Assembly: GCA_963805625.1 (NCBI GenBank) | Contig: CAWDVE010000010.1 | Span: forward strand, 1,472,001-1,536,000 | Reading direction: 5' to 3' | Source of the DNA: an uncultured Candidatus Rokubacteria bacterium | Lineage (GTDB): Bacteria > Methylomirabilota > Methylomirabilia > Rokubacteriales > DASRDR01 | DNA length: 64,000 nucleotides | Part shown: in pieces, positions 14,254-34,295 of the stretch | Layout: each line of letters opens with the position of its first letter | Numbering within the stretch: position 1 is the first letter of the stretch | Position numbers and translations under genes: made by a program | The notes under the pieces: generated by a model | Seen by the model: only the letters and a program-made list of their open reading frames with translations | Database searches by the model: none | What the model was told of the DNA's origin: nothing

Positions 14254-14261
14254 GGCGTCCT

Positions 14262-15887: not shown

Positions 15888-15900
15888 CGACCCGCCCTCC

Positions 15901-16305
15901 CTACGCGTCCGCCCGCCGGTACGATCGGAAGTAGGACACGATCTCGGGCAGCGGCGTTCCCATCGGGAAGACGGCGTGCACCCCCATCGCCCGGAGCGCC
16001 GCGGCGTCGCGCGCGGGAATCGTGCCGCCCACCACGACCGCGACGTCACCAGCGTCCGCCGCCCGGAGCCGCTCGAGAAGACGCCCCGACAGCGTGAGGT
16101 GCGCTCCCGAGAGCACCGACAGGCCGATGACGTCCACGTCCTCCTGGACCGCCTCGGCAACCAGCTCGTCGGGCGTCCGCTTGAGCCCCGAGTACACGAC
16201 CTCGATCCCGGCGTCCCGGAGCGCGTGCGCAACGACCTTGGCCCCGCGGTCGTGCCCGTCGAGACCCGGCTTCGCGATCAGCACCCTGAGCGGACGGTCC
16301 GTCAC
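15901..16305 (-). CDS. Cobalamin-binding small subunit of acyl-CoA mutase
   Basis: [14 protein letters not shown] (DxHxxG), [15 protein letters not shown]. Confidence 0.93.
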
Positions 16306-16784
16306 CCTGGTGTCACGGCCGGCGTGAAGGCCGGCAGGTAGCGCGGCTGCCCCTGCGGATCGTCGGCGACCCGGACTGGCGCGAACCTGACGCGAGCGCC
16401 CACCGCGAGAGCGGCCGGATCCGCGACGCCCACGAGGGGCGCGAAGACGCGGAGCCCCGCCACGTCGATGATCGCGAACACGAGGGGCCTCGTGAAGCCC
16501 GCCGGCACGCCGGTCTCCTGGACGCTGAAACCGTGGACCCGGCCGTCCGGCGGGAGATCCACCCAGTCGAACGCGTCGGACGTGCACGCGGGACAGAAGC
16601 CGCGCGGTGGCCAGTCAATCCGGCCGCAACCCCCGCACCGGGTCGTGGTCAGGCGCCCCTCCGCGAGGTGCGTGTAGAAGGGGTGGAGCTTGTTGTGCTC
16701 GGAGGATTCGAGCGGCAGGGGGTCCACCACCCGGACGTACGGCAGCCTGGTTGGGGTGCCCGGCGCGGTGGCGGGCTCCGTCAT
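16302..16784 (-). CDS. DUF35 / Zn-ribbon plus OB-fold protein (thiolase partner)
   Basis: [16 protein letters not shown] zinc ribbon followed by OB-fold [12 protein letters not shown]. Confidence 0.88.
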
Positions 16785-16850
16785 GGGATCAGCTCTCCAC
16801 GCGGCAGTCTATCATCGCCGGCGCGACCGCAGGGACGGCCGCGAGCGAGA

Positions 16851-17381
16851 TCAGCCGGTGAGAAGGCCCCGGACGAAGGCCTCCTGAACGGGCTCCTGCA
16901 TGGCGCTCGACCGGTAGATCCGCCGGAGCTCCGTCACCGGATCAATGGCCAGCCCGTGCGCCTTCAAGACAGACGCGAGCACCACGGCCGTCCGGCCGAG
17001 GCCAGCGTTGCAGTGGACCAGGATTCCGTCGCCGGCGGCCAGACGCTCCCCGACGTCGCGGAGCAGCTGCCCGAACCCCGGCTCCTCCCTCGGCACCCCG
17101 AAGTCCGCGATGGGGTACCGGCGCAGGTCGATCCGCTCGCGCGCGAGCGCCTCGAACAGTCCCGGAGCCCGCCTCGGCACCTCCCAGTCCTCGATCAGGC
17201 TCAGGACGAGCGTGACCCCTGATTCCCGCCAGGCCCGGACACCAGAGTCCACCGCGTCGGCCCTGGGCGGCTCGTCCGGATAGCTGGGCCGCCCGGCGCC
17301 CCAGAGCCGCGCCCGACGGGGCAGGACGGGGTGCACGAGCCGGAGAGGCTGTCCGACAGGAGGCGTCTCGACGGCGTTCAC
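16851..17381 (-). CDS. Dual-specificity/tyrosine protein phosphatase family protein
   Basis: CX5R motif VHCNAGLGRT and general-acid loop PIADFGVP; start approximate. Confidence 0.85.
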   Translation of the reverse strand: MNAVETPPVGQPLRLVHPVLPRRARLWGAGRPSYPDEPPRADAVDSGVRAWRESGVTLVLSLIEDWEVPRRAPGLFEALARERIDLRRYPIADFGVPREEPGFGQLLRDVGERLAAGDGILVHCNAGLGRTAVVLASVLKAHGLAIDPVTELRRIYRSSAMQEPVQEAFVRGLLTG

Positions 17382-17499
17382 CAGCGGGAGTATAGCAGCC
17401 GGAACCGGCACCGCCCGCGCGCCCTGAGGGGACCCGGCTCCGTGGACCGGACCGGGCCTCGCCGTCTCCCTCTCGCCGGGCGCGCGCGAACCCACCGTC

Positions 17500-18948
17500 A
17501 TGCGCTACACTGAAGTGACTGTGACGACCAGCTCGAGCCGAGACGGCGGCCGGAAGAAGACGCGAGGCACTACTTCTCGCGCGGCGTCGAGCGGACGAGG
17601 CAGCAGGAAGGCGGCCGCGTCCCCCCGTCGCCCGGTCGTAGAGGCGCCGCCGCCCGAGCCCGTCGTTCCAATCGTCCCGCAAGTCATCGACGAGCCCGAG
17701 CCCTTCCCGCTCCCGGTCTCCGCCGTCGAGAGCACGTTCGTCGCTCGCATGCCGCCGCCCGAGCCCGAGCGGCCACGGCCCCCCGGTCGGCGCGCGATCT
17801 TCCTCGACGTCGAGAACACGAGCCGCGCCCAGCACCTCGCCCACGTCATCGACCATCTGGGGGTCAATCCCTGGGACCGCAGGACCGAGCTCGTGGCCGT
17901 CGCGAACTGGCGGGTGGTGGGTCACGAGGCAGCGCGGCTGCTGGCGGCGCGCGGGGCCCATCTCGTGCACAGCGCCCCCTCGACGGGCGTCCGTGACTGG
18001 AGCGACCTGCGCATCGCCGTCGCGGCCGGGATCTGGCTGGCCTCGGCCCGACCCGGCGACATGATCGAGATCGTGTCCGACGACCGCGCCTTCGACGCCG
18101 TGGGAGACGTCGCCGCGAGCCTGGGGATCGAGTTCCGTCGCCTGTCGTATCGCCGTCTCAAGGAGGACTCGCCGGAAACGGTGTTGGTGGAGGAGGAGAG
18201 CCGGCCGCTTGCGACGGGCGTGAGCGCCTCAAGCTCGCGCCGCCGGCGTCGCCGCCGGGGGCGTGGCCCCGGTGGTCCCTCGCCGTTGCATGCCGGGGAG
18301 CGCCGGCCTGCCGATTCGCGGGAAGGCCCCCGGCATGGCGCCTCTGGCGGCCCGCGCGGCGGGCGGACGGGAGGCGGCAGGGGCCGCCCGGTCGGGTCCC
18401 ATGCCCCTCGGTCACAGCCCGACGCCCCCCAGACCACGGCTCCGCACGACGAGCTGGTTTCGGTGGTGCGCGGCCTCGTCGAGGGGGCGCCCAAGCGCAG
18501 CGTCAGCATCGACGCGGTGGCCAACGCGCTGAAGTCCCGGGGGTTCCAGCGGTCACCGGGCTCTCCCCGGCTCGTCACGCGGCTCCGCCGCATCAAGGAG
18601 CTCCTCGTGAGCCCGTCCGGGACGATCACGCTCGCCGAGGACGGCGCCCCGCCCGCGAGCGAACCGCAGGTCGAGAGCGAGCCCCGAGTCGAGAGCGCGG
18701 TGCAGATCGTGGTCAAGCCGATGGACGAGGCCGCCGAGATCGACGAGGCCGACGAGGACCGCCAGCCGGACTTTCTCCGCTCGCGAGAGAGCGAGCCCGA
18801 GCTGCCCGAGGTCGACGGCAACCGGGCCTTGCCCGCTCCCGGTCCTTCTGGCGCTCCGGCTGGCCCTCCGGCTCGTGGCCGCCGGCGTCGCCGCCGGCGC
18901 TGGCGCGGGGGTCCGCGCCAGTCGGTTCCGGGGTCCCAGCCGGCCTGA
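17500..18948 (+). CDS. NYN-domain (PIN-fold) ribonuclease-like protein with a putative OST-HTH domain and Arg-rich disordered regions
   Basis: AIFLDVEN, SDLRI, IVSDDRAF; helical segment IDAVANALKSRGF..RLVTRL. Confidence 0.7.
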   Translation: MRYTEVTVTTSSSRDGGRKKTRGTTSRAASSGRGSRKAAASPRRPVVEAPPPEPVVPIVPQVIDEPEPFPLPVSAVESTFVARMPPPEPERPRPPGRRAIFLDVENTSRAQHLAHVIDHLGVNPWDRRTELVAVANWRVVGHEAARLLAARGAHLVHSAPSTGVRDWSDLRIAVAAGIWLASARPGDMIEIVSDDRAFDAVGDVAASLGIEFRRLSYRRLKEDSPETVLVEEESRPLATGVSASSSRRRRRRRGRGPGGPSPLHAGERRPADSREGPRHGASGGPRGGRTGGGRGRPVGSHAPRSQPDAPQTTAPHDELVSVVRGLVEGAPKRSVSIDAVANALKSRGFQRSPGSPRLVTRLRRIKELLVSPSGTITLAEDGAPPASEPQVESEPRVESAVQIVVKPMDEAAEIDEADEDRQPDFLRSRESEPELPEVDGNRALPAPGPSGAPAGPPARGRRRRRRRWRGGPRQSVPGSQPA

Positions 18949-19022
18949 CCTGGCCGGGCCGCCCGCAGACTCGGGGGCCGCGCCCCCTCCCAGTCCGCTA
19001 CGTTCCCGTCAACCGGCGCGAC

Positions 19023-20186
19023 TCAGTCACGGCCGTAGAGCATGACGACGTGCTCGCCCATCCCCGAGTTGTTGTGGGTGAGGGCGAGTCGCGCCTCGGG
19101 TACCTGGCGCGGGCCGGCCTCGCCGCGAAGCTGCCAGAAGGCCTCGGAGGCCTGGGCGATCCCAGTGGCGCCGAGGGGGTGGCCGCAGCCGATCAGCCCG
19201 CCGCGCGGGTTGACCACGACCTTCCCGCCATAGTCGGACAGGCCCTTCTCGACGAAGCGGCCGCCCTCGCCCTTCGCACAGAAGCCGAGCTCCTCGTATG
19301 CGATGATCTCCGCGATGGCGAAGCAGTCGTGCACCTCCGCGAGATCCACGTCGTCGGGTCCGACGCCGGCCATCCGGTACGCCTGTTCCGCGGCCCGCCG
19401 CATCGACGGCCAGCTCGCGTAGTCCTCGGGGAGCGAGGACAGGGTGAACCCATCCAGCGCCTGGCCGGTACCCCGGATCCACACAGGCCGGTCCGTCAGG
19501 TCCCGGGCTCGCTCCTCGCTGGCGACGATGACGGCGGCAGCGCCGTCGGTGATGGGCGAGCACATGAACAGGCGAAACGGGGTCGCGATCATGCGCGAGC
19601 ACAGCACCTGGTCGAGGGTCGCGCCCTTCTGGAAGTGTGCGTAGGGGTTCTTGCTCGCGTGGTTGTGGTTCTTCACGCTGACCAGCGCCATCTGCTCCTC
19701 GGTCGTGCCGTGGCGCGCCATGTGCGCCTGGGCGGCCAGGGCGAAGCAGGGCGGCGCGGTGAGCCCGTGGGCCGCCTCCCACTCGCGGTCGACGCCCGTG
19801 CCCATGTTGAGGAGGGCCTCGTCCGGCGTCGGCACGTTCAGCTTCTCCACGCCCAGGACCATGACGAGGTCAGCGAGGCCGGCCGCGATGAAGGCGTAGG
19901 CGTACCGGAGCCCGACGGTGCCTGAGGCGCACATGTGCTCGGTCCGGGCGGAGAGCCGGGTCGGCTTGATCCCGAGCGCCTCGGCGGCGAGCGAGGAGAT
20001 GTGGCTCTGGAACGCCGTGCGCTCCGGCATGACCGAGCCCACCACGATCCCCTCGAGATCGACCGGCCTGAGGCCGGGGACCGAGTCGAAGCACGCCTTG
20101 CCGGCCTCCCAGATGAGGTCACGGTACGTCGCCTTCCGCACGCCGAAACGCGTCATGCCCGCTCCGACCAGGGCCACCTTCCGCAT
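19023..20186 (-). CDS. Thiolase family protein (SCP2/SCP-x type)
   Basis: EHMCASG, CSPITDGAAA, EVHDCF, GHPLGATG. Confidence 0.92.
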   Translation of the reverse strand: MRKVALVGAGMTRFGVRKATYRDLIWEAGKACFDSVPGLRPVDLEGIVVGSVMPERTAFQSHISSLAAEALGIKPTRLSARTEHMCASGTVGLRYAYAFIAAGLADLVMVLGVEKLNVPTPDEALLNMGTGVDREWEAAHGLTAPPCFALAAQAHMARHGTTEEQMALVSVKNHNHASKNPYAHFQKGATLDQVLCSRMIATPFRLFMCSPITDGAAAVIVASEERARDLTDRPVWIRGTGQALDGFTLSSLPEDYASWPSMRRAAEQAYRMAGVGPDDVDLAEVHDCFAIAEIIAYEELGFCAKGEGGRFVEKGLSDYGGKVVVNPRGGLIGCGHPLGATGIAQASEAFWQLRGEAGPRQVPEARLALTHNNSGMGEHVVMLYGRD

Positions 20187-20280
20187 GTCCCAGCCTCCAG
20201 GGCGGCGGCGCGCCGCCTCGCTCTCCCCTTATACCTCACGCGGGCGCGTCATGGGCAACGCCACCATGTATGGAGTTGCC

Positions 20281-21614
20281 TCAGGCCCGGGCTCCCGGAT
20301 CGAAACCCGCCAGGAAGAAGGCGGCGACGTGGTGCATTTGACAGAAGCTGCCCGCGCGGATCAGGGCGAGAACGGCCTCAGGCGCGACGTACTCGACGGC
20401 CACCCCGGGCTCCGGAACGAACTCCGCCAGGGGTCCGGATGCCTCGACGCGGAAGACGTGCTGGACGAGCTCGAGGCGGCCCGCGTCGGGGCGGAGCCCG
20501 CCGAGGTAGGTGACGCGCTCGGCCCGGAGACCGGTCTCCTCCAGGAGCTCCCGGCGGCACGCGGTCTCCGGATCCTCGCCCGGATCTTTCAGGCCCGAGG
20601 GCAGCTCCCACGTGTACTGCTCGACCGCCGGCCGGAACTGCCGGACGACCGCGACGCGCCCGTCCGGCGTCCGCGCGACGGCAACCACCCAGTCGAACGG
20701 CCCGAACGCGTGATAGGTGTCCGGCGCGCGGTTCGGGACGAACTCGACGTCCTTCTCGATGAGGGTGGTCCACGGCGACAGCTGACGCACTCGCCGCGCC
20801 ACGATCCGGGCCCGCTCGCCCCACCAGGTCTCGAGGAACCGCGCCGTCGGCTCCCGGCCCCGCACCCGGGCGACATCGGCAGGTGTCCGCCCTTCCGCGG
20901 TCCGCATCGACGTCTCGGCCCCGCGCAGGAGGAGCCGTGTCACCAGGGAGAGCTCCCCCCGCTCGCCGCGATGTGGAGCGGCGTGAAGCCTCCGCCGTCC
21001 ACGGCGTTCACCTCCGCGCCCGCCGAGAGCAGGCGGTCCACCAGGTCGAGCCCGGCGGTGCCTGCCAGGCCCGCGTGAAGTGGCGTGTTTTCCAGCGGGT
21101 TCCGGGAGCGAGCGCGCGGATCCCCGCCGTGCGCGAGAAGCAAAGCGACGGCCGGTGTCTCGCCGAAGTGAGCCGCGAGATGGAGCGGCGTCCAACCATC
21201 GCCCGCGTGCGTGGAGACGAGTCCTGGCGCTTCCCCGAGGAGCGCGGCAAGGCGGGTGACGTCGCCCGCGGCGGTGGCCTCGAACGCGTCGAGCACGGCG
21301 CCGCGGGCCCGCAGGAGGCCGAGGACGGCCGGCACGCGGTGGTAGCAGGCCAGGAGCGCGGGCGTCGTGCCCTCGAACAGGCCGAGCTGGTTGGCCTGGC
21401 CCGTCGCGATGGTCAGGACGAGCATGCCGTGGGCGATCCGGCCCTTCATGGGGCCCTGCCGCGCGGACTCCTCGTCGGTGTGGAGGGGATTGAAATCGCC
21501 GGAGAGCCCGGCGAAGCGGTCCACGGTCCCCTCGGTCACGGTGCGCGCGGCCGTCGTGAAGGCCTCGCCCACCGCGAACTCCTCGCAGTGCCGGCCGCGC
21601 GGGACGTAGGTCAT
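20281..21614 (-). pseudogene. Chimeric locus: truncated MaoC dehydratase fused in frame to an ankyrin-repeat plus NUDIX hydrolase, with a frameshift near 20955
   Basis: MaoC motifs SGDFNPLH..IAHG; ankyrin repeats GWTPLHLAA, NTPLHAG, GFTPLHIAA; Nudix box GLKDPGEDPETACRRELLEETG in the shifted frame. Confidence 0.75.
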
Positions 21615-22765
21615 CCGAGACTCGGGGGGCGCTCGAGGTCGCGCCCGATGATGACCCGCAGGATCTCCGACGTCCCCCCGCCCCAGAGCAGGAAGCGAGC
21701 GTCGCGGAAATAGCGCTCGATGGGGTACTCGGTCGCGAAGGAGTAGGACGCGAAGATCCGGGAGGCCTCGTCACAGATCCGGTTCGCGGCCTCGGAGGCG
21801 AAGAGCTTGGTCATCGCGGCCTCCCGTGTGACCGGCAGCCCCTGGTCGATGGACCATGCCGCGTGGTAGACGAGCAGGCTCGCCGCGTGGAGCTGGGTGA
21901 GCATGTCGACGAGCCGGAAGGTCACCGCCTGGTGCTCGCCGATGGGCTTGCCGAACGTTACGCGCTCCTTCGAGTAGCGGAGCGCGGCGTCGTAGGCCGC
22001 ACGGCCGAGGCCGACCGAGAGGGCCCCGGTCATCACCCGGATCTCCGAGAGGATGCCCCCCACCTTCTCGACGCCGCCGGTCTCGCCGCCGAGGAGGTGC
22101 TCGTCGGGGACGACCACGTCGTCGAGGATGATCTCGCCCGTCGCCGACGCCCGCACGCCGAGCTTCTCGATCCGCTTGCCGAGCGTCACGCCGGGGAATT
22201 GCCGGTCAACCAGGAACAGCGCGATGTGCTTCATCCCGCGCTCGGGAGACGTCTTCGCGCAGACCGTCAGCATGTCGGCGACGGGAGCGTTCGTGACCCA
22301 CGTCTTTGTGCCCTTGAGGCGCCAGCCGCCCTCGACGCGCTCGGCCCTGGTGGCCAGGTTGCCGATGTCGGAGCCCGCGTTCGGCTCCGTCAAGGCGAAC
22401 GTGGCGACCTTCTCTCCCCGAAGCGCGGGGACGAGGTAGCGCTCGCGGAGCGCGTCGCTCCCGTACTTCCAGATGAAATGCGTCCCCATGAGGCTCTGCA
22501 TCGCGGCGAGCGCGGCGACCGACATCGATCCGCGGCCCAGCTCCTCGGCGAAGAGGCAGTAGGTCACGAAGTCCGCGTCCGCCCCGCCGTAGGCCTCGGG
22601 ATAGCGAAGGGCGAGGTAGCCTTGCTTGCCCAGGCGCCGGAAGAGCGCGCGGGGAAACTCCCCCGCCTCGTCGATCTCGTGAGCGACCGGCGCCACCTCG
22701 GCGTCCACGAAGCGGGCGACGGCCCGCCGGAACTCCTCCTGCTCTGCGCTCAGCCGGAAGTCCAT
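21611..22765 (-). CDS. Acyl-CoA dehydrogenase family protein
   Basis: FALTEPNAGSD, GTKTWVTN, ERVTFGKPI, ERYFRDAR, GGTSEILR. Confidence 0.93.
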   Translation of the reverse strand: MDFRLSAEQEEFRRAVARFVDAEVAPVAHEIDEAGEFPRALFRRLGKQGYLALRYPEAYGGADADFVTYCLFAEELGRGSMSVAALAAMQSLMGTHFIWKYGSDALRERYLVPALRGEKVATFALTEPNAGSDIGNLATRAERVEGGWRLKGTKTWVTNAPVADMLTVCAKTSPERGMKHIALFLVDRQFPGVTLGKRIEKLGVRASATGEIILDDVVVPDEHLLGGETGGVEKVGGILSEIRVMTGALSVGLGRAAYDAALRYSKERVTFGKPIGEHQAVTFRLVDMLTQLHAASLLVYHAAWSIDQGLPVTREAAMTKLFASEAANRICDEASRIFASYSFATEYPIERYFRDARFLLWGGGTSEILRVIIGRDLERPPSLG

Positions 22766-22935: not shown

Positions 22936-24300
22936 TCACCTCTTGACCTTCGGAAGGCCGGCCAGCGCCGCCTTCACCTGCTCCGCGGGGTACTCGAAGT
23001 CCTCGAGCTTGCCCGTCATGTAGCGCTCGTAGGCGGAGAGGTCGAAGTGGCCGTGGCCACAGAAGTTGAACGCGATGACCTTCCGGTCGCCCGAGGCCTT
23101 GCAGCGCAGCGCCTCGTCGATGACGACCCGGATCGCGTGGGCCGCCTCGGGCGCCGGCAGGAACCCTTCCGCCCGCGTGAACGTCAGCGCCGCCTCGAAG
23201 GTGGGGTTCTGGTGGACGGCCACCGCCTCGATCACCTTGTGGTCGTACAAGGCGCACACCAGGGGCGCCATGCCGTGGTAGCGGAGGCCCCCCGCGTGGA
23301 TCGGCGCCGGGATGAAAGAGTGACCGAGCGTATACATCTTGACCAGTGGCGTCATCTGCCCGGTGTCGCCGAAGTCGTAGACGTACTCGCCCTTGGTGAG
23401 GCTCGGGGCCGCGTGGGGCTCGACGGCGATGACGCGAAGGTCCTTCCGCCGCCCGCTCAGCTTGTCCTGGAGGAAGGGGAACGTGAAACCGCCGAAGTTC
23501 GAGCCGCCCCCGATGCAGCCGACGAGGATGTCCGGGCGGTCGCCCGCCATCTCCAGCTGCCGCTGGGCCTCCAGCCCGATGACCGTCTGGTGCGTCAGGA
23601 CGTGGTTCAGCACGGAGCCGAGCGAGTACTTCGTATCCTCCCGCTGGGCAGCCTCCTCGACCGCCTCCGAGATCGCCATGCCAAGGCTTCCCGGCGAGTG
23701 CGGGTCCTTTGTGAGCGCCGCGCGGCCGGCCGCCGTCTCGCGAGACGGGCTCGCCACCACCTTGCCGCCCCATGCCTCCATCATGATGCGCCGGTACGGC
23801 TTCTGGTCGTAGGAGACCCGCACCATGTAGACCTTGCACTCGATCCCGAAGATCTGACAGGCAAATGACAGCGCCGAGCCCCACTGCCCCGCTCCCGTCT
23901 CCGTCGTGATGCGCCGGACGCCTTCCTGGTGGTTGTAGTAGGCCTGGGCGACCGCGGTGTTCGGCTTGTGGCTCCCGGCGGGCGAGACGCCCTCCCACTT
24001 GTAGTAGATCCGCGCTGGCGTCCCGAGCGCCTTCTCCAGGCGATGGGCACGGTAGAGCGGCGTCGGCCGCCAGAGCCGGTAGACGTCCCGCACGGGCTCG
24101 GGGATGTCGATCCACCGCTCCTGGCTCACCTCCTGCTTGATGATCTCCATCGGGAACAGGGGGGCGAGGTCCTGAGGACCGATGGGCTGGAGCGTGCCCG
24201 GGTGGATCACCGGCGGGAGCGGCGCCGGCAGGTCCGCCTGGATGTTGTACCAGCGGCTCGGCAGGTCCTTCTCGTCTAGCAGGAACTTGGTCTGGGCCAC
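22936..24300 (-). CDS. trpB2: Tryptophan synthase beta chain type 2 (TrpB-like PLP enzyme)
   Basis: [17 protein letters not shown] (PLP Lys), [43 protein letters not shown]. Confidence 0.95.
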
Positions 24301-24314
24301 GGGAACCTCCTTGT

Positions 24315-25220
24315 TCAGCCTGGGCGGCGTTGGCCGGGTCGCGCCGGATCCGGGAGAGTAGCCCGCGCGAGCGCGTCCGCGTACGCGTGGCGTCCCGCCT
24401 CGTCAGCGAAGAGATCGTCAGGGATGCGGTGATCGGCGAACTGCCAGAGCCGCTCGGGGTAGCGACGGTCGACGGCCAGCCCGCCACCGAGGCACGCAAG
24501 CGGCCGCGCCCGCTCACGCTCGACCTCGTCCGCGAGCGCCGCTCGCAGCCCGCCGAGCGCCGCGAGCGGCACGGCCAGCCCGAGCACGCGGTACGGCAAG
24601 AGGAAGCGCGTCGACTTCGGCGGTAGGAGCGCCACCTCCGCTCGCCGGCGCACGGCCGGCTTGTCGAGCGCCGGCGGACGCAGGACGACGACGTCCGCCG
24701 CCCCCAGCCACCCGGCGATCGCCTCGTCCTCGACGAGACGCGCCGGACGCCGGTGGCCGTTCCGCGAGACGAGCCGCTCGACCTCGCTCGCCAGGGCGTG
24801 GGGATCCGACGCCTCGGGTCCAGGCCGACCGTAGACCCGATCGCCGTAGTGACAGCGGAGCCCGCCCTCCACACCAGCCTTGAGCCCGAGCGCCCGGCGC
24901 GCGGCGTCGAAGGCGGCCGCCGGCACGCCCTCGAGCACGCGGCACCAGGTTCCGATGCGAACCTCGGGCGACTCGAGGTCGACCTGCTGAATCACGGCGA
25001 AGCGCGCACCGAAATCGCGCGCGAGGACGACGGCGCGATGGCTCCCGTCCAGGATCAGCCCGGATCCGGCATCGACGACGAGCGGCCACGACAGGACGCG
25101 CGCGGCCCCGAGGAGGTCCGCCACGCGGGACTCACCATCCGGGGACGTGGCTTCGTGCGGGCGAAGGTCCCCGAGCCTGGCAACGGCAAGACTCGCTCGG
25201 ACGTCGTCCGCTGACTCCAT
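24315..25220 (-). CDS. ParB/Srx-fold protein, SerK/SbnI-like free L-serine kinase homologue
   Basis: LRPHE, ILDGSHR, VRIGTW and C-terminal [11 protein letters not shown] match the recalled SerK motif order PHE, DGHHR, TW, PKTTRH. Confidence 0.7.
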
Positions 25221-25275: not shown

Positions 25276-26592
25276 TCAGCGCCCGCGCAGCGCCCGGCGC
25301 GCTTCCTCGGTGGCGTCGCTCTCCGGAAAGTCACGGACGAGCTGGCTCCAAGCCTGCCGCGCGTCGGACTCTCGCTTCTGGGCGCGATAGGCGAGGCCGA
25401 GGCGGAGCAGGGCCTGGGGCGTGTCCTTCCCCTTCGGGGCGAGATCGATGGCCTTCCGGTACTCGAGCGCGGCGCGCTCGAAGTCGCGCGCCGCGTAGTA
25501 CGCCTCGCCGATCCGGAACTGCGCCGACGCGGCGAGTGGGTCCGACGGAAACGTCTGGACGAGCTCCTCGAACTCCAGCACGGCCTGTCCCTGCTCGCCC
25601 TTGCTCCAGTTCTCCATCGCGCGATCGAAGAGGGCACGGGCGGTAGACGATCCCGGCCCGGGGAGGGTCGTCGTCGCCGCCGTGCCGGCCTTGGCGGGGC
25701 GCGGCGGCGTCGCCCCCGCTGGGCGCTCCGGGGCCGCCGTTTTCGGCTCGACGGGAGGCGGAGCGGCCTTCGCCACGCGCGCCGCTTCGTCGGGGGCCGG
25801 GCGAGCCGGGGTCGTGGCGCGAGGAGCGTCCGGCTTCTTCCAGGCCGGGGGCGTGTCGGCCACGCGAGGGCCCGTAGAGTCGACCATGGTCTCGCGCGGA
25901 GGAGCGGGCGCCACCGCTGGGGGCGGTGTCGAGCTCCTGGGGTTGCGCGAGGACCCGAGCGTCGCCGGCGGCGTGAGGCCGGCCCCCGCCGCAGCGCTGT
26001 CCGGCGCGGAGGCCGGCGGCGTGGACTCCTCGGCGGGACGGGGGGCCGATGACGCGGCCGGCGACCGCGCGGGCGATCCGCTTCGGGCCCCGGACGCCGA
26101 TGTCGACGCAGAGTCCAGGATCCGGGCGAGCTGGCTCTCGACCCCCGTGAGGCTCATCTCGACCCGGCGCAGTACCTGGCCCAGCTCGGTCGCTCGCCTC
26201 TCCAGGAGGTCGATGCGCCGGGCCTGGGCGTCGAGCACCTCGACCTGGCGCTGGAGGTCGTGACGGGACGACGCCTCGATCGCCTTCTGGACGGCGTCGA
26301 ACTCCGCTCGCGTCTCCTGCGCGACACGATCCGCGTGCTCCGTGCCGGCGCGCTGCGAAGCCTCCACGCGCGTGCGGAGCTCGGCGACATCGGCGCGGAG
26401 ACGGTCCACCTCCTGGCGCAGAGCAGCGGGAGAGTCGGGCGGCGGCGCCTTCGTCTCGTCCGCCGGCTTCGCGCCGCGCCCGCAGCCGCCGCTCAGGCCG
26501 GTCACCAGGACCACCGCGACCGCAACAGCCGTGTCGAGCCATCGTCGCGACCGGTCGCGACCTCGGATCTCTCGTGCCTGGGCCGATTTCAC
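25276..26592 (-). CDS. CpoB/YbgF-like lipoprotein (coiled coil, Pro/Ala linker, C-terminal TPRs)
   Basis: Hydrophobic signal plus LSGGC; TPRs AQFRIGEAYY, PQALLRLG, LVRDFPES; start approximate. Confidence 0.75.
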   Translation of the reverse strand: MKSAQAREIRGRDRSRRWLDTAVAVAVVLVTGLSGGCGRGAKPADETKAPPPDSPAALRQEVDRLRADVAELRTRVEASQRAGTEHADRVAQETRAEFDAVQKAIEASSRHDLQRQVEVLDAQARRIDLLERRATELGQVLRRVEMSLTGVESQLARILDSASTSASGARSGSPARSPAASSAPRPAEESTPPASAPDSAAAGAGLTPPATLGSSRNPRSSTPPPAVAPAPPRETMVDSTGPRVADTPPAWKKPDAPRATTPARPAPDEAARVAKAAPPPVEPKTAAPERPAGATPPRPAKAGTAATTTLPGPGSSTARALFDRAMENWSKGEQGQAVLEFEELVQTFPSDPLAASAQFRIGEAYYAARDFERAALEYRKAIDLAPKGKDTPQALLRLGLAYRAQKRESDARQAWSQLVRDFPESDATEEARRALRGR

Positions 26593-26775
26593 GCGCACAG
26601 TATCGCACCGTAGCACCCGCGCCGTTTCAGGGTCAACCAACGGGGGCCCCGCTGCTGTTGCCAAATGGAAATGTCACCTCCCCTAACTGGCACCCGAGCG
26701 GCTCAGCAACGGCTGCGGCAGTCGGGTGGCTGCCGCGGGTGGCCGCCCGGCGCGGCGCCGCGGTAAGCTGGCCAT

Positions 26776-28296
26776 GTGGCCGTCGCGACGCCGTCCCGGC
26801 TCCGCGTCCGACACCCGCTCCCTCCGGCGCGCTGGCCGACGCGCGAGGAGGCCGAGCAGGCCCGCTGGTTCTCCCCGGTCCGTCTCGGCGTCCACTGCCT
26901 GGCGGCCGACCGCACGTGGGTGCCGGCGATGGTCCCCTGGCGGGCGACCGAGGACGGCCACGTCACCCCCGAGGTGCTCGAGTGGTACGGCCGCTTCGCC
27001 GAGGGCCAGCCCGGTGTGCTGGTCGTGGAGGCAACCGGCATCCGCGACGTACCGAGCGGCCCGCTCCTCCGCATCGGCAGCGACCGTTTCGTCCCGGGGC
27101 TCCGGCACCTCGTCGAGACGGTGCGGGAGCGGAGCGAGGGGCGGACGCGCCTCTTCATCCAGGTCATCGACTTCGTCGCGGTCCGGCGGCGGCCGCAGCC
27201 GGCGACATTCTTCGCGCGCTATCTCGAGATCGGGGACGACCTCCGTCGCCGCCTGGCCGAGGCGCTCGACGACGCGCGCTGGCAGGACGCGGCTGCGGCG
27301 CCGGATGCCGAGGTGCGGGCCCGCCTGGCCGAAGCCGGACGCTCCCTCGTCGAGGCCGTTCTCAGCGCGCGCGAGCGGGAGTCGCTCGACTACGGCTACC
27401 GCGAGCGGGTAGGCGACCTCCACCTGCCGCACATCCGCGACCTGCCGCGGGTCCTGCCGGGCCTCTTCGCCGAGGCCGCGCAGCGGGCGCGCGAGGCGGG
27501 CTTCGACGGCGTCGAGCTTCACTACGCGCACGCCTACACGATGGCCTCGTTCCTCTCGCGGATGAACCGGCGGACTGACGGCTACGGCGGGGCGCGCCCG
27601 GAGCGGGCGCGGCTTCCGCTGGAGGTGCTCCACACGGTCCGGAACAAGGTCGGCGACGACTACGTGGTGGGCATCCGCTACCTGGGCCACGACGTGGTGG
27701 CAGGCGGTAACGACCTCGACGACGCGATCTGGTTCGGGCTTCGCTTCGCCGAGGGTCGGGCGGACTACCTGTCGGTGTCCAAGGGCGGCCGATTCGAGGA
27801 CGCCCGGCAGCCCAAGGTCGGCGAGGCGGTCTACCCCTACACCGGTGAGTCGGGCTATGAATGCATGCCCACCGTGATGTCGGACGCGCGAGGCCCGTTC
27901 GGCCGCAACGTGCCGCTGGCGGCCGCCATCCGGGCCGGCCTCCGGGCGGCGGGGCACCAGCTCCCGGTGGTCACGAGCGGCGGCGTGTCCACCTTCGACC
28001 AGGCGGAGGGCATCCTGGCCCGCGGGGAGGCGGATATCGTGGCGGCCGCACGCCAGACCCTCGCCGATCCGGACTGGTTCCGGAAGATCCGGCTGGGCCA
28101 CGGGCACCTCGTCCGTCGCTGCGAGTTCACGAACTACTGCGAGGGCCTGGACCAGCGGCACAAGCAGGTGACCTGCAAGCTGTGGGATCGCGATCTCGAC
28201 CAGGATGACCCGGGTGTGACGCTCGCGAGCGACGGGCGACGCCGGCTCGCGCCTCCGTCCTGGCGGCCGCCGGCCGCAGCGGGCGGAGAATCCTGA
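26776..28296 (+). CDS. NADH:flavin oxidoreductase (old yellow enzyme family)
   Basis: PAMVPW, EAGFDGVELHYAHAY, NRRTDGYGG, ARQTLADPDW, C-terminal CEFTNYC. Confidence 0.88.
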   Translation: MAVATPSRLRVRHPLPPARWPTREEAEQARWFSPVRLGVHCLAADRTWVPAMVPWRATEDGHVTPEVLEWYGRFAEGQPGVLVVEATGIRDVPSGPLLRIGSDRFVPGLRHLVETVRERSEGRTRLFIQVIDFVAVRRRPQPATFFARYLEIGDDLRRRLAEALDDARWQDAAAAPDAEVRARLAEAGRSLVEAVLSARERESLDYGYRERVGDLHLPHIRDLPRVLPGLFAEAAQRAREAGFDGVELHYAHAYTMASFLSRMNRRTDGYGGARPERARLPLEVLHTVRNKVGDDYVVGIRYLGHDVVAGGNDLDDAIWFGLRFAEGRADYLSVSKGGRFEDARQPKVGEAVYPYTGESGYECMPTVMSDARGPFGRNVPLAAAIRAGLRAAGHQLPVVTSGGVSTFDQAEGILARGEADIVAAARQTLADPDWFRKIRLGHGHLVRRCEFTNYCEGLDQRHKQVTCKLWDRDLDQDDPGVTLASDGRRRLAPPSWRPPAAAGGES

Positions 28297-28400
28297 CGCG
28301 CGGCTCCGCCGGAGAGCCGGCGCACGATGCGGAATCTCGACAGCCCAAGGGGGCGCCCCGATGGACGTTGGCGTCATCCCGGGGCACAAGGAGATCCTCG

Positions 28401-28739
28401 ATGGGGAGCTACTACGCGTCCGAGCACCTCGGGAAGTTCGGAACCATCGCCCAGGGGAGCCCGGACCTTGCCGAGAAGTTCTTCGCCTGGTACAACGCGG
28501 TCTTCGCCGAGGGCGCCCTCAGCGAGCGCGAGAAGGCGCTGATCGCGCTGGGCGTGGCCCACGCCGTCCAGTGCCCCTACTGCATCGACGCGTACACGAA
28601 GACGTGTCTCGAGAAGGGCTCCGATCTCGAGCAGATGACGGAAGCGGTCCACGTGGCCTCGGCCATCCGGGGAGGCGCCTCGCTGGTCCATGGCGTCCAG
28701 ATGCTCGAGCACGCGCGGCACGCGGGGATGGCGGAGTGA
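28401..28739 (+). CDS. AhpD/carboxymuconolactone decarboxylase-family protein (ArsS-cluster associated)
   Basis: LSEREKALIAL..QCPYCID, GGASLVHGVQM; AAGGAG RBS. Confidence 0.88.
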   Translation: MGSYYASEHLGKFGTIAQGSPDLAEKFFAWYNAVFAEGALSEREKALIALGVAHAVQCPYCIDAYTKTCLEKGSDLEQMTEAVHVASAIRGGASLVHGVQMLEHARHAGMAE

Positions 28740-29848
28740 CGCCACCGGGGACAGGCGCCGCCGACCCCGACCTCGCGACCCTGGCCGCGGGCCCCAAGGG
28801 AACGCGAAGCCTCCGAGCCCGGGACTCCCCGCTCGCCTCGACTGCGGCTCAACTCCGGCTCCTCGAGACGCTGCCGCTCCCCGGCGGGGATTTCGACGCA
28901 ACCCTCGGAGCGTGTGGATGGACCGAGCTCAGGCCGGCGCCGCTCGAGATCTTCCAGATCAACGTGGGCCGCCTCTGTAACATGACCTGCCGCCACTGCC
29001 ACGTCGACGCGGGACCCGACCGGCTGGCGGAGAACATGGACCGCGAGACGGTCGACCTCTGCCTCGCGGCCCTCGACCGGACGACCGCGCACACGGTCGA
29101 CATCACCGGCGGGGCACCCGAGCTCAACCCTCACTTCCGCTACCTGGTCGACCAAGCCGTGGCGCGCGGAAAACATGTGATGGACCGGTGCAACCTCACG
29201 ATCCTCCTCCTTCCCCGCTGCGCCGACCTGCCCGAGTGGCTCGCGGCGCGTGGCGTCGAGATCGTATCCTCACTCCCCCACTACCGCCGGTTGAACACTG
29301 ACGCCCAGCGGGGTGAAGGCACCTTCGACCTGTCGATCGAGGCGCTGAGACGGCTGAACGCCGCGGGCTACGGGCAGGGCGATCCCAGACGCCGGCTGAC
29401 GCTCGTCAGCAATCCTGCCGGAGCGTTCCTACCCGGCTCGCAGGCTTCGCTCGAGCGCGACTGGAAGGCAGGGCTCGCCCGCCACCACGGCGTCACGTTC
29501 GACCGGCTCTTCACGCTGGTCAACATGCCGATCAATCGCTTCCTCGACTGGCTCGTCGAAAGCGGCAACCTCCAGGAGTACATGGCGCGGCTGCTGGCGA
29601 CCTTCAACCCGGCGGCGATCCCGGGTCTCATGTGTCGCAACACGATCTCGGTCGGCTGGGACGGGACGCTCCACGACTGCGACTTCAACCAGATGCTCGA
29701 CCTCCCGGTCGAGGCTCCTCCCGGTCGCCGCCCTCACGTGCGGGACCTCGACCCCGCCTGGCTCGAGACGCGCCGGATCCGCACCGCGCGTCACTGCTTC
29801 GGGTGCACGGCGGGCGCCGGGAGCTCCTGCGGCGGCGCCACGACGTGA
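28736..29848 (+). CDS. arsS: Radical SAM/Cys-rich protein, arsenosugar biosynthesis ArsS-like
   Basis: CNMTCRHC, DITGGAPE, LMCRNTISV, DCDFNQML, HCFGCTAGAGSSCGG. Confidence 0.85.
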   Translation: MTPPGTGAADPDLATLAAGPKGTRSLRARDSPLASTAAQLRLLETLPLPGGDFDATLGACGWTELRPAPLEIFQINVGRLCNMTCRHCHVDAGPDRLAENMDRETVDLCLAALDRTTAHTVDITGGAPELNPHFRYLVDQAVARGKHVMDRCNLTILLLPRCADLPEWLAARGVEIVSSLPHYRRLNTDAQRGEGTFDLSIEALRRLNAAGYGQGDPRRRLTLVSNPAGAFLPGSQASLERDWKAGLARHHGVTFDRLFTLVNMPINRFLDWLVESGNLQEYMARLLATFNPAAIPGLMCRNTISVGWDGTLHDCDFNQMLDLPVEAPPGRRPHVRDLDPAWLETRRIRTARHCFGCTAGAGSSCGGATT

Positions 29849-31371
29849 GCGATTCGCCGAGGCTGCTCCCGGACGACGTCCACAACCGCACGCTGATCCA
29901 GAACGTCCACCCACCCGGCTGGGAGAACCCGGAGCCGGCCCGGCGGTACAACCTCGTGGTGGTCGGCGCGGGGACGGCGGGCCTCGTGAGCGCGGCGGGC
30001 GCCGCGGGCCTCGGCGCCCGGGTCGCCCTGGTCGAGCGGCACTTCATGGGCGGCGATTGCCTGGTCACGGGCTGCGTCCCCTCGAAGGCTGTGATCCGCT
30101 CCTCACGCGTCATCGGCGAGATCCGGGAGGCCGCGACATTCGGCGTGAAGGTTCCCGGCGGGGTGGTGGTCGACTTCGGCGCCGTCATGGAGCGGATGCG
30201 ACGGGTCCGCGCGGAGATCAGCCCGCATGACTCGGCCTGGCGCTTCAGCCGGGAACTCGGCGTCGACGTCTTCCTCGGCGACGCGGCATTCACCGGGCCC
30301 GACACGTTGGCCGTCGCCGGCCGGACCCTTCGCTTCGCGAGGGCCGTCGTCGCCACCGGAGCGCGGCCCGGACACCCGCCGATCCCCGGCCTCGCCGAGA
30401 CCGGATTCCTCACGAGCGAGACCGTCTTCGAGCTGACCGAGCGGCCCGGTCACCTGGCCGTGTTGGGCGGCGGCCCGATCGGGTGCGAGCTGGCCCAGGC
30501 GCTCCGTCGTCTCGGCGCGGAGGTGACCCTCCTGAGCGACGTGGCGCAGCTCCTGCCGCGCGAGGATGCGGACGCGGCCGAGATCGTCCGGCAGGCGCTC
30601 CTCCGGGACGGAGTGCGGCTGATCCTCGGCGCCGAGATCGCCAGCGTCACGCGCGAGGCGACGCGGAAAGTCCTCCGCTACCGGGAGAGCGGGCGGGAGG
30701 GCACCGTGGCGGCCGATGAGATCCTCGTCGCGGCCGGCCGCGTGCCGAACGTCGAGGGGCTCGGGCTCGAGGCAGCAGGCGTACGGCACGCGCGCGAGGG
30801 CATCGTCGTGGACGACCACCTGCGGACGACGAACCGCCGGGTCTACGCCGCCGGTGATGTGTGCCTCGGCTGGAAGTTCACCCACGCCGCCGGCGCCGCC
30901 GCGCGGATCGTCGTCCAGAACGCGCTCTTCGGGCTCGCCGGCCGCCGCCGGGTGAGCCGGCTCGTCATGCCGTGGTGCACGTACACGGACCCGGAGGTGG
31001 CGCACGTCGGGCTCAGCGAGCGCGAGGCGGGCGAGCGCGGGCTCGGGATCGACACGCTCGTGCGCCGCCTCGAGGACGTGGACCGTGCGCTCACCGACGG
31101 CGAGACGGAGGGCTTCGTCAAGGTGCACGTACGGCGCGGCACCGACCGGATCGTCGGCGCGACCATCGTCGCCCGGCGGGCCGGCGAGATGATCAGCGAG
31201 GTAACGCTCGCCATCGTCGCCGGGGTCGGGCTCGGCCTGCTCTCGGACGTCATCCACCCCTACCCCACGCAGGCCGAGGCGGTGCGCCACGTCGCCGATC
31301 AGTACCAGCGGACGCGATTGACGCCCTTCGTGCGCGCGGCGCTCAGGGCCTGGCTCAGGTTGGCGCGGTGA
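29845..31371 (+). CDS. Pyridine nucleotide-disulfide oxidoreductase (mercuric reductase/dihydrolipoamide dehydrogenase-like)
   Basis: GAGTAG, GGDCLVTGCVPSK, GGGPIGCE, IHPYPT. Confidence 0.9.
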   Translation: MSDSPRLLPDDVHNRTLIQNVHPPGWENPEPARRYNLVVVGAGTAGLVSAAGAAGLGARVALVERHFMGGDCLVTGCVPSKAVIRSSRVIGEIREAATFGVKVPGGVVVDFGAVMERMRRVRAEISPHDSAWRFSRELGVDVFLGDAAFTGPDTLAVAGRTLRFARAVVATGARPGHPPIPGLAETGFLTSETVFELTERPGHLAVLGGGPIGCELAQALRRLGAEVTLLSDVAQLLPREDADAAEIVRQALLRDGVRLILGAEIASVTREATRKVLRYRESGREGTVAADEILVAAGRVPNVEGLGLEAAGVRHAREGIVVDDHLRTTNRRVYAAGDVCLGWKFTHAAGAAARIVVQNALFGLAGRRRVSRLVMPWCTYTDPEVAHVGLSEREAGERGLGIDTLVRRLEDVDRALTDGETEGFVKVHVRRGTDRIVGATIVARRAGEMISEVTLAIVAGVGLGLLSDVIHPYPTQAEAVRHVADQYQRTRLTPFVRAALRAWLRLAR

Positions 31372-32075
31372 GCAAGGCGGCCCCTGGGGGCCCCGGCCGG
31401 CTGGCCCTTCTCGCGCTCGGCCTGCTCGCGGCGGGCGTCCTCGCGTGGGCCCTCGGCCTCTACGACTGGGTACGGCCGGAGCGGCTGGCCCGCCTGAGGA
31501 CGGCGATCGAGGCATACGGGGCCTGGGGGCCCCTCCTGTACGTGGGCGGCTACGTGGTGGCCGAGCTCCTCTTCGTCCCCGCGCTCCCCCTGACGCTCCT
31601 CGGCGGGCTCGTGTTCGGGCCGATCTGGGGCACGGTATACACGTGGATCGCGGCCACCCTCGCGGCCGCGTCTGCATTCCTGGTCGCCCGGCACCTCGCG
31701 CGGGACACCGTCGAGCGCTGGCGGGCCCAGAGCCCCCGGGTCGCGCGGATCGACGCCGCCGTCGAGCGCCACGGCTGGCGCATCCTGATGGTGACCCGCC
31801 TCGTCCCGCTCTTCCCGTTCAACCTCCAGAACTTCGCGTACGGCCTGACACGGATCCCCTTTTGGACGTACGTCGGAGTGTCGTCGGTGTGCATGCTGCC
31901 AGGCACCATCGCATTCACGCTGGCGGGCGGCGCGCTCTCCGGCGGCGGCAATTCCACACGGATCGCGTGGACCCTCGCCGCCGCAGCCGCCCTGATCGTC
32001 CTCGTGTCGCTCGTGCCCCGCTGGCTCACGCAGAAGAGCCCCGCGGCCAGGGAGCTCCTTGCTCCGGACCGCTGA
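31368..32075 (+). CDS. TVP38/TMEM64 (VTT, DedA superfamily) membrane protein
   Basis: LTLLGGLVFG, RLVPLFPFNLQNFAYGLT, MLPGT. Confidence 0.9.
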   Translation: MSKAAPGGPGRLALLALGLLAAGVLAWALGLYDWVRPERLARLRTAIEAYGAWGPLLYVGGYVVAELLFVPALPLTLLGGLVFGPIWGTVYTWIAATLAAASAFLVARHLARDTVERWRAQSPRVARIDAAVERHGWRILMVTRLVPLFPFNLQNFAYGLTRIPFWTYVGVSSVCMLPGTIAFTLAGGALSGGGNSTRIAWTLAAAAALIVLVSLVPRWLTQKSPAARELLAPDR

Positions 32076-32087
32076 GGCGTCCGCGCC

Positions 32088-33086
32088 GTGAAACTCTCGA
32101 TCGTCGTCCCCGTTCTCGACGAGGCCGACCGACTCGAGGCCCTGCTGGCGGAACTCGCCCGAGACTGCCCCGGTGTCGAGGTGGTCGTCGCGGACGGCGG
32201 AAGCCGGGACGGAAGCCTGGAGATCGCCGCGCGGACCGCGGGCGTCGGTCTCGTGTCCAGCAACCGCAGCCGCGCGCGCCAGATGAACGCGGGCGCCCTC
32301 CGGGCGCTCGGTGAGATTCTCCTCTTCCTCCACGCCGACACACGCCTGCCGTCCGGAGCGGCCGAGGCCGTCCACCGCGCCCTCGCCGACCCCTCGGTCG
32401 TCTATGGCCGCTTCGACGTTCGCTTCGACAGCCCCGGGGCGGCGTTCCGGCTGATCGCCCGGCTCATGAATGTCCGCTCACGCCTGACGGGTATCTGCAC
32501 GGGAGACCAGGCGATCTTCGTCCGCCGCGCAGCGTTCGAGCGCCTCGGCGGTTACCCCGACATCGCCCTCATGGAGGACATCGAGCTCACGCGCCGGCTG
32601 AAGCGCATCGGCCGCTTTGCTCCGTTGGGGCTCCGGGTCACGACCTCCGCCCGGCGATGGGAGCAGAACGGAGTGGCGCGGACGATCGCTCTCATGTGGA
32701 CGCTGCGCTTCCTCTACCTCTGTGGGGTTAGGCCGGACCGCCTCCACCGCTGGTACTACGGAGCGCCGGCAAGCGGCGCGTCGAGCGGGAGAGGCGGGTC
32801 AGGTCCGGTGGTGCTTTACAGCGCGTCGGCGCGCCTCACGCCACCGGCGCCATCGGCTGGTCCCTTCCACGCGGCTCCCCAGGAGCACGGCCGGCACCGA
32901 GAGCAGGAGCACGACGATGAGCGCCACGCCGAGCCAGCGATTGGCGTCGGCGCCGAACCAGCGGACCGCGCTCTGCTGAACGATGAGCCCCACCAGCACG
33001 GCGCCGGACCAGAACAGCGCTCGACGTCCCACGGCTCGCCGTCCTCCACCCGTCAGGGGCGCTCGGAAGCTAGGCGTCCACCCTAG
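32088..33086 (+). CDS. Family 2 glycosyltransferase (radical SAM/arsenosugar-cluster type) with an atypical C-terminal extension
   Basis: SIVVPVLDE, DGGSRD, RARQMNAG, FLHADT, GDQAIF, MEDIE, TSARRW. Confidence 0.88.
   Translation: MKLSIVVPVLDEADRLEALLAELARDCPGVEVVVADGGSRDGSLEIAARTAGVGLVSSNRSRARQMNAGALRALGEILLFLHADTRLPSGAAEAVHRALADPSVVYGRFDVRFDSPGAAFRLIARLMNVRSRLTGICTGDQAIFVRRAAFERLGGYPDIALMEDIELTRRLKRIGRFAPLGLRVTTSARRWEQNGVARTIALMWTLRFLYLCGVRPDRLHRWYYGAPASGASSGRGGSGPVVLYSASARLTPPAPSAGPFHAAPQEHGRHREQEHDDERHAEPAIGVGAEPADRALLNDEPHQHGAGPEQRSTSHGSPSSTRQGRSEARRPP
32799..33032 (-). CDS. Small hypothetical membrane protein (2 TM)
   Basis: Two hydrophobic helices and a basic tail, with GGAGG upstream; overlaps the non-conserved tail of the glycosyltransferase. 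Confidence 0.45.
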   Translation of the reverse strand: MGRRALFWSGAVLVGLIVQQSAVRWFGADANRWLGVALIVVLLLSVPAVLLGSRVEGTSRWRRWREARRRAVKHHRT

Positions 33087-33130
33087 GACGCGCTCCCCGG
33101 TCGCGGAAGAGGGGACTCACGCAGAGGGGA

Positions 33131-34249: not shown

Positions 34250-34295
34250 GGCCGGGTGCGCGCGTCGCGGCCCGGCCTGTCCGGGAGCGCGCCCC

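Follow-up and report, generated by a model that had tools for sequence, protein, structure and literature searches.

A SerK/SbnI-like gene directly upstream of trpB2 in an uncultured Rokubacteria bacterium: a putative source of O-phosphoserine for tryptophan synthesis

TrpB2 is a widespread enzyme which is reported to use or prefer O-phosphoserine (OPS) in the accessible part of PMC11917138 (citing Busch 2014), and our literature search found no dedicated OPS source for it. Where, then, does a TrpB2 obtain its OPS? A possible answer is given by a gene pair of soil Rokubacteria, studied here in an uncultured Candidatus Rokubacteria bacterium (genome G000, 99.9% complete and 6.3% contaminated), of which a stretch of 64,000 nucleotides, here called the window, was analyzed. 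On the minus strand of the window, trpB2, encoding a stand-alone pyridoxal phosphate (PLP) enzyme of the TrpB2_o type (22936..24300, GTG start, 454 amino acids), is directly preceded by an open reading frame (ORF) for a protein of 301 amino acids (24315..25220, ATG start). An earlier note on this DNA had proposed that the ORF encodes a serine kinase. Judged from its fold and catalytic residues, the 301-amino acid protein is probably a free L-serine kinase that would supply OPS to the adjoining TrpB2, thereby converting serine to OPS and, with indole, OPS to tryptophan.

The coordinates bear out the arrangement that the earlier note had described: the ORF ends 14 bp before trpB2, on the same strand. 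The spacer (24301..24314, minus strand) contains a Shine–Dalgarno-like AAGGAGG (24312-24306) for trpB2, and the two genes would be co-translated. The spacer is 10–26 bp long in 14 of the 16 paired loci measured and 53–68 bp in the remaining two. Two further genes of the minus strand provide context only: a gene for a YbgF/CpoB-like TPR protein (25276..26664; 80.2 bits, cut-off 90.1), which ends 55 bp before the kinase-like ORF and is limited to genus-level relatives, and an acyl-CoA dehydrogenase gene (acd, 21611..22765), which begins 170 bp after trpB2 and stays behind trpB2 in relatives with and without the kinase. The RNA data consisted of small-share RNA runs only. The kinase–trpB2 junction is spanned by one 237-bp contig of a relative; this contig may be DNA and is no proof of a transcript. 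A scan found no promoter or terminator, and is uninformative at this G+C content.

Elsewhere in the window, an acyl-CoA cluster (13525-22765, minus strand) follows trpB2 and comprises the dehydrogenase, a MaoC-like/ankyrin-like region that appears frameshifted around 20900-21600, a thiolase, an OB-fold partner, and split methylmalonyl-CoA-mutase-like genes. An ORF of 506 amino acids (26776-28296, minus strand), by eye an NADH:flavin oxidoreductase with a large insert, is conserved in 8/8 related loci and has no Pfam match at E ≤ 1 and no NCBIfam match at E ≤ 1e-15. Positions 28368-34336 hold an arsenosugar-type cluster, all members of which score over cut-offs (a peroxidase-like TIGR04169 protein, the radical SAM protein ArsS TIGR04167, an FAD oxidoreductase, a TIGR04283 glycosyltransferase, and a SelD-N-like oxidoreductase).

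The 301-amino acid ORF is not a chance reading frame, since 90 homologues were found at E ≤ 0.001, the dN/dS values against 14 relatives (0.16–0.47) point to purifying selection, and the predicted structure has pLDDT 90.8. TrpB2 has dN/dS values of 0.02–0.19, i.e., selection on the kinase-like gene is much weaker; all these values come from a simple counting method applied to 14 pairs and are rough at this G+C content. As the earlier note had foreseen, automated annotation misses the gene: the protein has no Pfam match at E ≤ 1, and most of its named homologues carry the label “hypothetical protein”. The model for SerK (NF053625) gives 15.9 bits (E 0.0055) and its curated cut-off of 380 is not reached, and the model for SbnI (NF033589, cut-off 350 bits) gives no match, although it is weakly matched by 41 of 50 wider homologues (best E 7e-17). 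A single-sequence search of the PDB reached SerK only at E 0.68, which was resolved by profiles. Profile A1, built from 48 of the 90 close homologues, retrieves SerK and SbnI alone from the PDB at E ≤ 1e-4 (7 sequences). Profile A2, in which A1 was widened with distant representatives to 50 rows, has SerK as its best sequence-profile match (E 1.2e-35, 126 bits), followed by SbnI (E 1e-24) and ParB (E 0.016), and its alignment reaches residue 254 of 5ujd (SbnI). When the predicted model was searched with Foldseek, ranks 1–9 were all SbnI or SerK (E 1.8e-13 to 1.3e-11, query TM 0.51–0.64). Rank 1 is SbnI (E 1.8e-13, 244 columns, query TM 0.64), and the two-domain SerK fold is matched at E 5.5e-13 to 1.3e-11 (TM 0.51–0.56). 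The next match, a ParB N-domain (E 8.6e-3, TM 0.20), lies eight orders of magnitude behind. The ParB clamp architecture (N-domain, HTH and dimerization) is absent from the 301-amino acid protein: about 80 columns match, with TM about 0.2, and there is no TIGR00180 or Pfam match.

The motifs are present where the earlier note had placed them: PHE (21-23), DGSHR (58-62), IGTW (89-92), and an 11-residue motif at 200-210. The motif order quoted there for both known kinases, ending in DGHHR..PKTTRH, holds for SerK; SbnI reads DGVHR..AGVTRF, and it is the SbnI-type Phe that is found in the 301-amino acid protein. In the profile alignments from which residue equivalences were drawn, E23, D58, H61, R62, W92, K202, T204, and R205 align with SerK E30, D69, H72, R73, W102, K221, T223, and R224, respectively, and all eight are invariant in A1 (48/48). 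F206 stands for SerK H225, so that KSTRF is found in place of SerK KTTRH, in agreement with the TRF of SbnI; Phe occupies this position in 48/48 sequences of A1 and His in 34/50 of the wider family. The partner of E23, SerK E30, is the residue mutated in the E30A and E30Q substrate complexes (PDB titles). A C-terminal extension like that of SbnI, with RxYxE at 252-256, is present as well. Overall identity to SerK and SbnI is about 16–20%. Thus, the likeness put forward earlier was upheld by profiles, by structure prediction and by the conserved catalytic positions: the 301-amino acid protein is a genuine SerK/SbnI homologue, a member of neither curated family, nearer to SerK by sequence and nearer to SbnI by structure.

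The wider family comprises 1,123 clusters at 50% identity (E ≤ 0.001), and a feature search, which gives a lead only, places the protein near mostly archaeal unannotated clusters. G000 has no second or “mini” paralogue of the kinase (best other E 0.9). Fusions of kinase and TrpB2 were sought among 7,994 scored matches, of which three were “longer”. Two of these (P0244 and P0245) come from close relatives and result from reading through a frameshift, and the idea of a fusion was rejected, its absence being weak evidence. In P0243, a 69%-identical kinase homologue lies in frame behind an NRPS adenylation/carrier fragment, which may reflect an artefact of gene calling or a copy next to a biosynthetic cluster.

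The product of the adjoining gene is clearly a TrpB2, with 667.9 bits on TIGR01415 (cut-off 518.85), 744.5 on PRK12391 (cut-off 366) and only 141 on the trpB1 model. Its nearest solved structures are the Sulfolobus-type 6hul, 4qys, and 6hte, with the TrpB1 entries following at a wide distance. K112 lies within GSHKPN and E134 within a stretch of ten residues. R170 and R340 are invariant in 75/75 copies, whether or not a kinase is present, and R340 takes the place of an Asp of TrpB1 (GLDYPG); both arginines are presumably linked to phosphate binding. The gene is of the TrpB2_o type in that it lies outside trp genes, a separate trpB1–trpA being found on contig C16. TrpB2 is said, by the title of a 2014 paper of Hiyama, to serve tryptophan synthesis and indole salvage. 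Besides trp operons, no conserved neighbourhood of trpB2 was detected by Merkl 2007 (PMC1854888, accessible text). Cys414 of TrpB2 (window 23059-23061) is found where the TrpB1 of the same genome has the Ser of SGRG, and Cys occurs there in 38/75 TrpB2 proteins of the phylum sample.

Is the neighbourhood of the two genes conserved? Of 251 genomes that represent the phylum, 16 have the kinase-like gene (17 matches) and 151 have trpB2; these tallies include five unpublished genomes (G034, G044, G076, G217, and G218), on which no specific claim rests. In every one of the 17 loci (16 genomes, one phylum; G243 is a mixed bin with two such loci), the kinase-like gene is directly upstream of trpB2. 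Fifteen copies are of full length, one is cut by a contig end (G232) and one is truncated (G241). In the last of these (L023, about 1420-1515), the kinase breaks after ~107 codons into a run of 9-bp repeats directly before an intact trpB2, which could be a decaying copy or an assembly artefact. Seen from the kinase, the pairing, whose conservation across genomes the earlier note had named as a check, is thus complete, and it extends over three upstream contexts (the TPR gene, a hydantoinase-like pair and a divergent ferritin-like gene, named by eye). Seen from trpB2 it is not, as about 135 of the 151 trpB2-bearing genomes lack the kinase, which is therefore dispensable; of these ~135 loci, 60 were sampled and none had any homologue within the fetched stretch.

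The pair is kept behind other upstream genes in G250 (51% identity) and in G214 and G215 (about 41%), whereas the twelve other kinase-bearing genomes belong to one genus, share synteny and are therefore not independent. In G244 the kinase has been cleanly lost, and the TPR gene directly precedes trpB2 at a distance of 65 bp; in G202, likewise a clean loss, the hydantoinase-like pair lies directly before trpB2, whereas in G214 and G215 the kinase sits between them. A tree of 75 TrpB2 proteins, which left out one frameshifted locus and the cut-off copy of G215, requires four changes of the paired state, forced by supported branches. Most simply, the pair would be old and the kinase would have been lost from it repeatedly; a history of repeated gain is a conceivable alternative. 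Part of the linkage may be inertia, since the synteny of trpB2 and acd is inherited likewise.

Of seven loci in a metagenome scan, one was a true homologue, with the pair kept, and six were chance matches; a viral scan found no kinase homologue. SbnI-like matches occur in 139 plasmid records. Among 12 trpB2 loci on plasmids, the five that were inspected had no annotated ParB-like neighbour. A profile search of five plasmid records (three with loci inspected in this way, one other, and one of Brevibacillus) matched the Brevibacillus record alone. In this record (Brevibacillus laterosporus NZ_CP011076.1, L099 4839-8739), an unannotated SbnI-like gene lies ~2 kb before a PLP enzyme which is SbnA/CysK-like by eye. 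Within the phylum genomes, a single further homologue, distant and of full length, was gained with the wider profile, in G031; 11 other genomes gave weak matches only (E above 1e-4). The G031 gene (L121, G031:C144, 13-2048; 280 amino acids), on a 2.2-kb contig that is possibly a contaminant, is SbnI-like and overlaps by 4 bp a gene for a cystathionine-β-synthase-like PLP enzyme with a CBS-domain tail; the two may be a pair in which OPS is fed to a cystathionine or cysteine synthase.

The earlier note had regarded the two genes as a bypass of TrpA and SerA/C. No bypass is needed in G000, which has trpB1–trpA, serA (over cut-off), glyA, cysE, and CysK, and, just upstream of serA, a class-V aminotransferase that matches no SerC model. 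As trpB1–trpA and serA have been kept, the kinase–trpB2 pair is an extra route and fills no gap; trpA was also found in 14 of the 15 other kinase-bearing genomes. Cysteine synthesis need not draw on OPS, since 20 of 21 genomes have cysE over cut-off, among them all five from which serA is deleted (see below). Two further CysM-like enzymes of G000, below family cut-offs, might use OPS, and there are two strong PF01212 matches, which bear on the question of a tryptophanase. No SerB over cut-off and no match to DUF1015 (PF06245) were found anywhere in G000; there are five histidine-phosphatase homologues. In family f2 (L162-L164, L168, L169, and L176), a gene for a histidine phosphatase comes after an aminotransferase(–serA) block, together with hisZ and purA, and serA is often elsewhere, in varying contexts. 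The phosphatase encoded there could be the SerB that is otherwise missing.

In a chosen set of 34 genomes, serA is missing from 6/15 other kinase-bearing genomes and from 0/19 kinase-less genomes. In one of the six, G232 (71% complete), the whole locus is absent. In the other five (G235, G237, G238, G239, and G243; L140-L144), serA is gone from its native locus and the aminotransferase beside it is intact (91–94%). The aminotransferase of G237 runs straight into the next gene, G238 has decayed remnants of serA, G235 has other sequence, and G239 and G243 have one replacement in common. No serA orthologue was found elsewhere in these five assemblies (best 47% or less). There were at least two deletion events, since a tree of the aminotransferases groups G235, G237, and G238 (100/99). 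The TrpB2 of all five is under strong selection (dN/dS 0.02–0.08), glyA is present in four of the five assemblies and cysE in all five. What is new here is that five kinase-bearing genomes lack serA at its native locus and keep TrpB2 under strong selection. The aminotransferase probably has a second role, as it has been kept after the loss of serA. These five deletions fit a second source of phosphoserine in kinase-bearing genomes.

Among kinase-less or kinase-broken members of the same family that are at least 85% complete, 8/8 keep serA; G244 (L145) retains only the catalytic 319 residues of SerA. Over all 170 genomes with a completeness of 85% or more, no serA was found in 3/8 with an intact kinase and in 11/162 without; the Fisher p of 0.02 for this comparison was set aside, as related genomes are not independent and assembly gaps are among the 11. 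The copy in G161, one of those 11, is broken; G104, G128, and G175 also lack the aminotransferase; G106 ends at the aminotransferase; and five more are without clear status. G164 (95% complete, of another family) carries trpB2 but no kinase; serA is absent from both loci at which its kin have it, which looks like a true loss. A strict rule of “kinase or serA” is ruled out by this genome. The role of SerA could be taken over by other 2-hydroxyacid dehydrogenases, of which there are many (about 45% identical). The association of the kinase with loss of serA is a suggestive pattern within one family and not a rule.

The mechanism that we propose would begin with serine derived from glycine by GlyA or taken up from outside. 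The kinase would phosphorylate serine to OPS, and TrpB2, if it prefers OPS and accepts indole as the nucleophile, would eliminate the phosphate on PLP and then add indole to give tryptophan. The pair would provide a local supply of OPS, redundant with that from SerA and the aminotransferase, so that lineages could lose either source; where serA is gone and GlyA would provide serine from glycine, the kinase would be the only recognizable source of OPS left. By analogy, these steps mirror SerK–CysK and SbnI–SbnA.

A serine kinase need not serve its neighbour. It could supply a general pool of OPS, for serine assimilation or for OPS-using cysteine synthases, with its place before trpB2 being inherited synteny. 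Thermococcus SerK serves both of these purposes in the accessible text of PMC5120207, and the two CysM-like proteins of G000 (below family cut-offs), the retention of the aminotransferase after loss of serA, and the CBS-like partner of the G031 homologue would all suit such a role. Yet cysE and CysK are present, assimilation to 3-phosphoglycerate requires the SerA that five carriers have deleted, and no copy of the subfamily was found away from trpB2 in 17/17 loci, which makes a general pool unlikely. Slightly less likely again is a nucleotide-binding protein with a different phosphorylation substrate or with a regulatory function such as SbnI also has; a DNA- and heme-binding role of SbnI is given in the available text of PMC7139808. 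The identity of about 16–20% to SerK and SbnI and the Phe in place of SerK His225 leave room for this, but this Phe is shared by SbnI, which is proven to be a serine kinase, the residues on the nucleotide side (DGxHR) and on the serine side (E23, W92, and KxTR) are all invariant, and the neighbour belongs to an enzyme class reported to need OPS.

Two other explanations appear quite improbable, to the same degree. With OPS from the kinase, TrpB2 might use some nucleophile that is not free indole; its product would then not be tryptophan and would be tied to the acyl-CoA dehydrogenase/thiolase/mutase cluster downstream. In family-level relatives acd follows trpB2 (by 13 bp in G228), as it does in G250 and G202, but the distance varies widely; Cys414 is present in 14/15 kinase-paired TrpB2 proteins, where TrpB1 of the genome has Ser, but also in 24/60 unpaired copies. 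No source of indole was identified, which favours another nucleophile, whereas the TrpB2 is an ordinary member of TIGR01415, 70–88% identical to kinase-less TrpB2 proteins of the order. Alternatively, the kinase might run in reverse and replace phosphoserine phosphatase, as proposed for DUF1015/SerBK, a structural relative of SbnI that complements serB (PMC13759103, accessible text). G000 has neither SerB over cut-off nor DUF1015, but it has the five histidine-phosphatase homologues, the kinase is never beside serA, and it is under selection in five genomes without serA, which would thus have no OPS to dephosphorylate. A kinase that feeds OPS to TrpB2 for tryptophan synthesis is the reading that we prefer.

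A broader reading is offered tentatively, with rather less than an even chance of being correct. The 301-amino acid protein and its relatives might be a third branch of free-serine kinases, which together with TrpB2 would form an old two-gene unit for making tryptophan from serine and indole, with a dedicated source of OPS. This would make the phosphorylated serine pathway disposable, so that carriers could delete serA, draw their serine from glycine and remake OPS by phosphorylating serine directly; and the distant clusters, over 1,100 in number, might be an unrecognized superfamily of phosphoserine feeders, each with its own PLP β-replacement enzyme (TrpB2, CysK, SbnA, or CBS-like). Free-serine kinases, described from two niches, would come to include a large family that lacks annotation (1,123 clusters). 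As an experiment of nature, the serA deletions suggest that phosphoserine can be supplied by the kinase in place of the route from glycolysis, and they bear on the prediction of amino acid pathways in uncultured soil bacteria. A kinase–TrpB2 couple would be a simple biocatalytic route to tryptophan analogues, and the pair offers a direct two-gene test in E. coli.

The earlier note knew of no description of this pairing, and a literature search (subscription papers and supplements being outside it) found none either. TrpB is unmentioned in the main texts of PMC12704722 and PMC13759103, as far as these were accessible, and the dataset files of PMC12704722 might list such neighbourhoods; the main text of the SerK paper (PMC5120207), likewise in its accessible part, does not mention tryptophan.

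How does the pair compare with known systems? SerK (Thermococcus kodakarensis TK0378, ADP-dependent; PDB 5x0b-5x0k, 1vk1; NF053625) shares its fold with the 301-amino acid protein over about 235 columns, as well as the HE, DGxHR, W, and KxTR motifs. SerK feeds OPS to the PLP β-replacement enzyme CysK, whereas the partner here is TrpB2; the protein also differs from SerK in having ~60 extra C-terminal residues, a bacterial host, Phe for His225, and a score far below the family cut-off. SbnI (Staphylococcus; PDB 5ujd, 5uje, 6nr6; NF033589) is the best structural match and shares the TRF motif and the C-terminal extension. It is encoded with SbnA, a PLP enzyme that uses the OPS made by SbnI, just as the 301-amino acid protein is encoded beside TrpB2. 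In contrast to SbnI, there is no sbnA/sbnB siderophore operon at this locus, the neighbours being the TPR gene, trpB2, and acd, and the product here would be tryptophan, whereas the SbnI–SbnA route leads to diaminopropionate. Our trpB2 is a full member of its family (TIGR01415, COG1350; TrpB2_o of Merkl 2007, PMC1854888, in its accessible text; PDB 4qys, 6hul), and differs from other TrpB2 in its dedicated kinase-like neighbour. SerBK/DUF1015, a proposed serine kinase in the accessible text of PMC13759103, has a remote structural likeness to SbnI but is of a different family (PF06245, absent from G000), and lies with serA and serC, whereas the 301-amino acid gene lies with trpB2. The logic of a kinase plus a PLP enzyme is seen in SerK with CysK (PMC5120207) and in SbnI with SbnA (PMC7139808), as far as the accessible texts go. 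The pair described here, with its predicted function, is a variant of this known module, well supported by structure and context.
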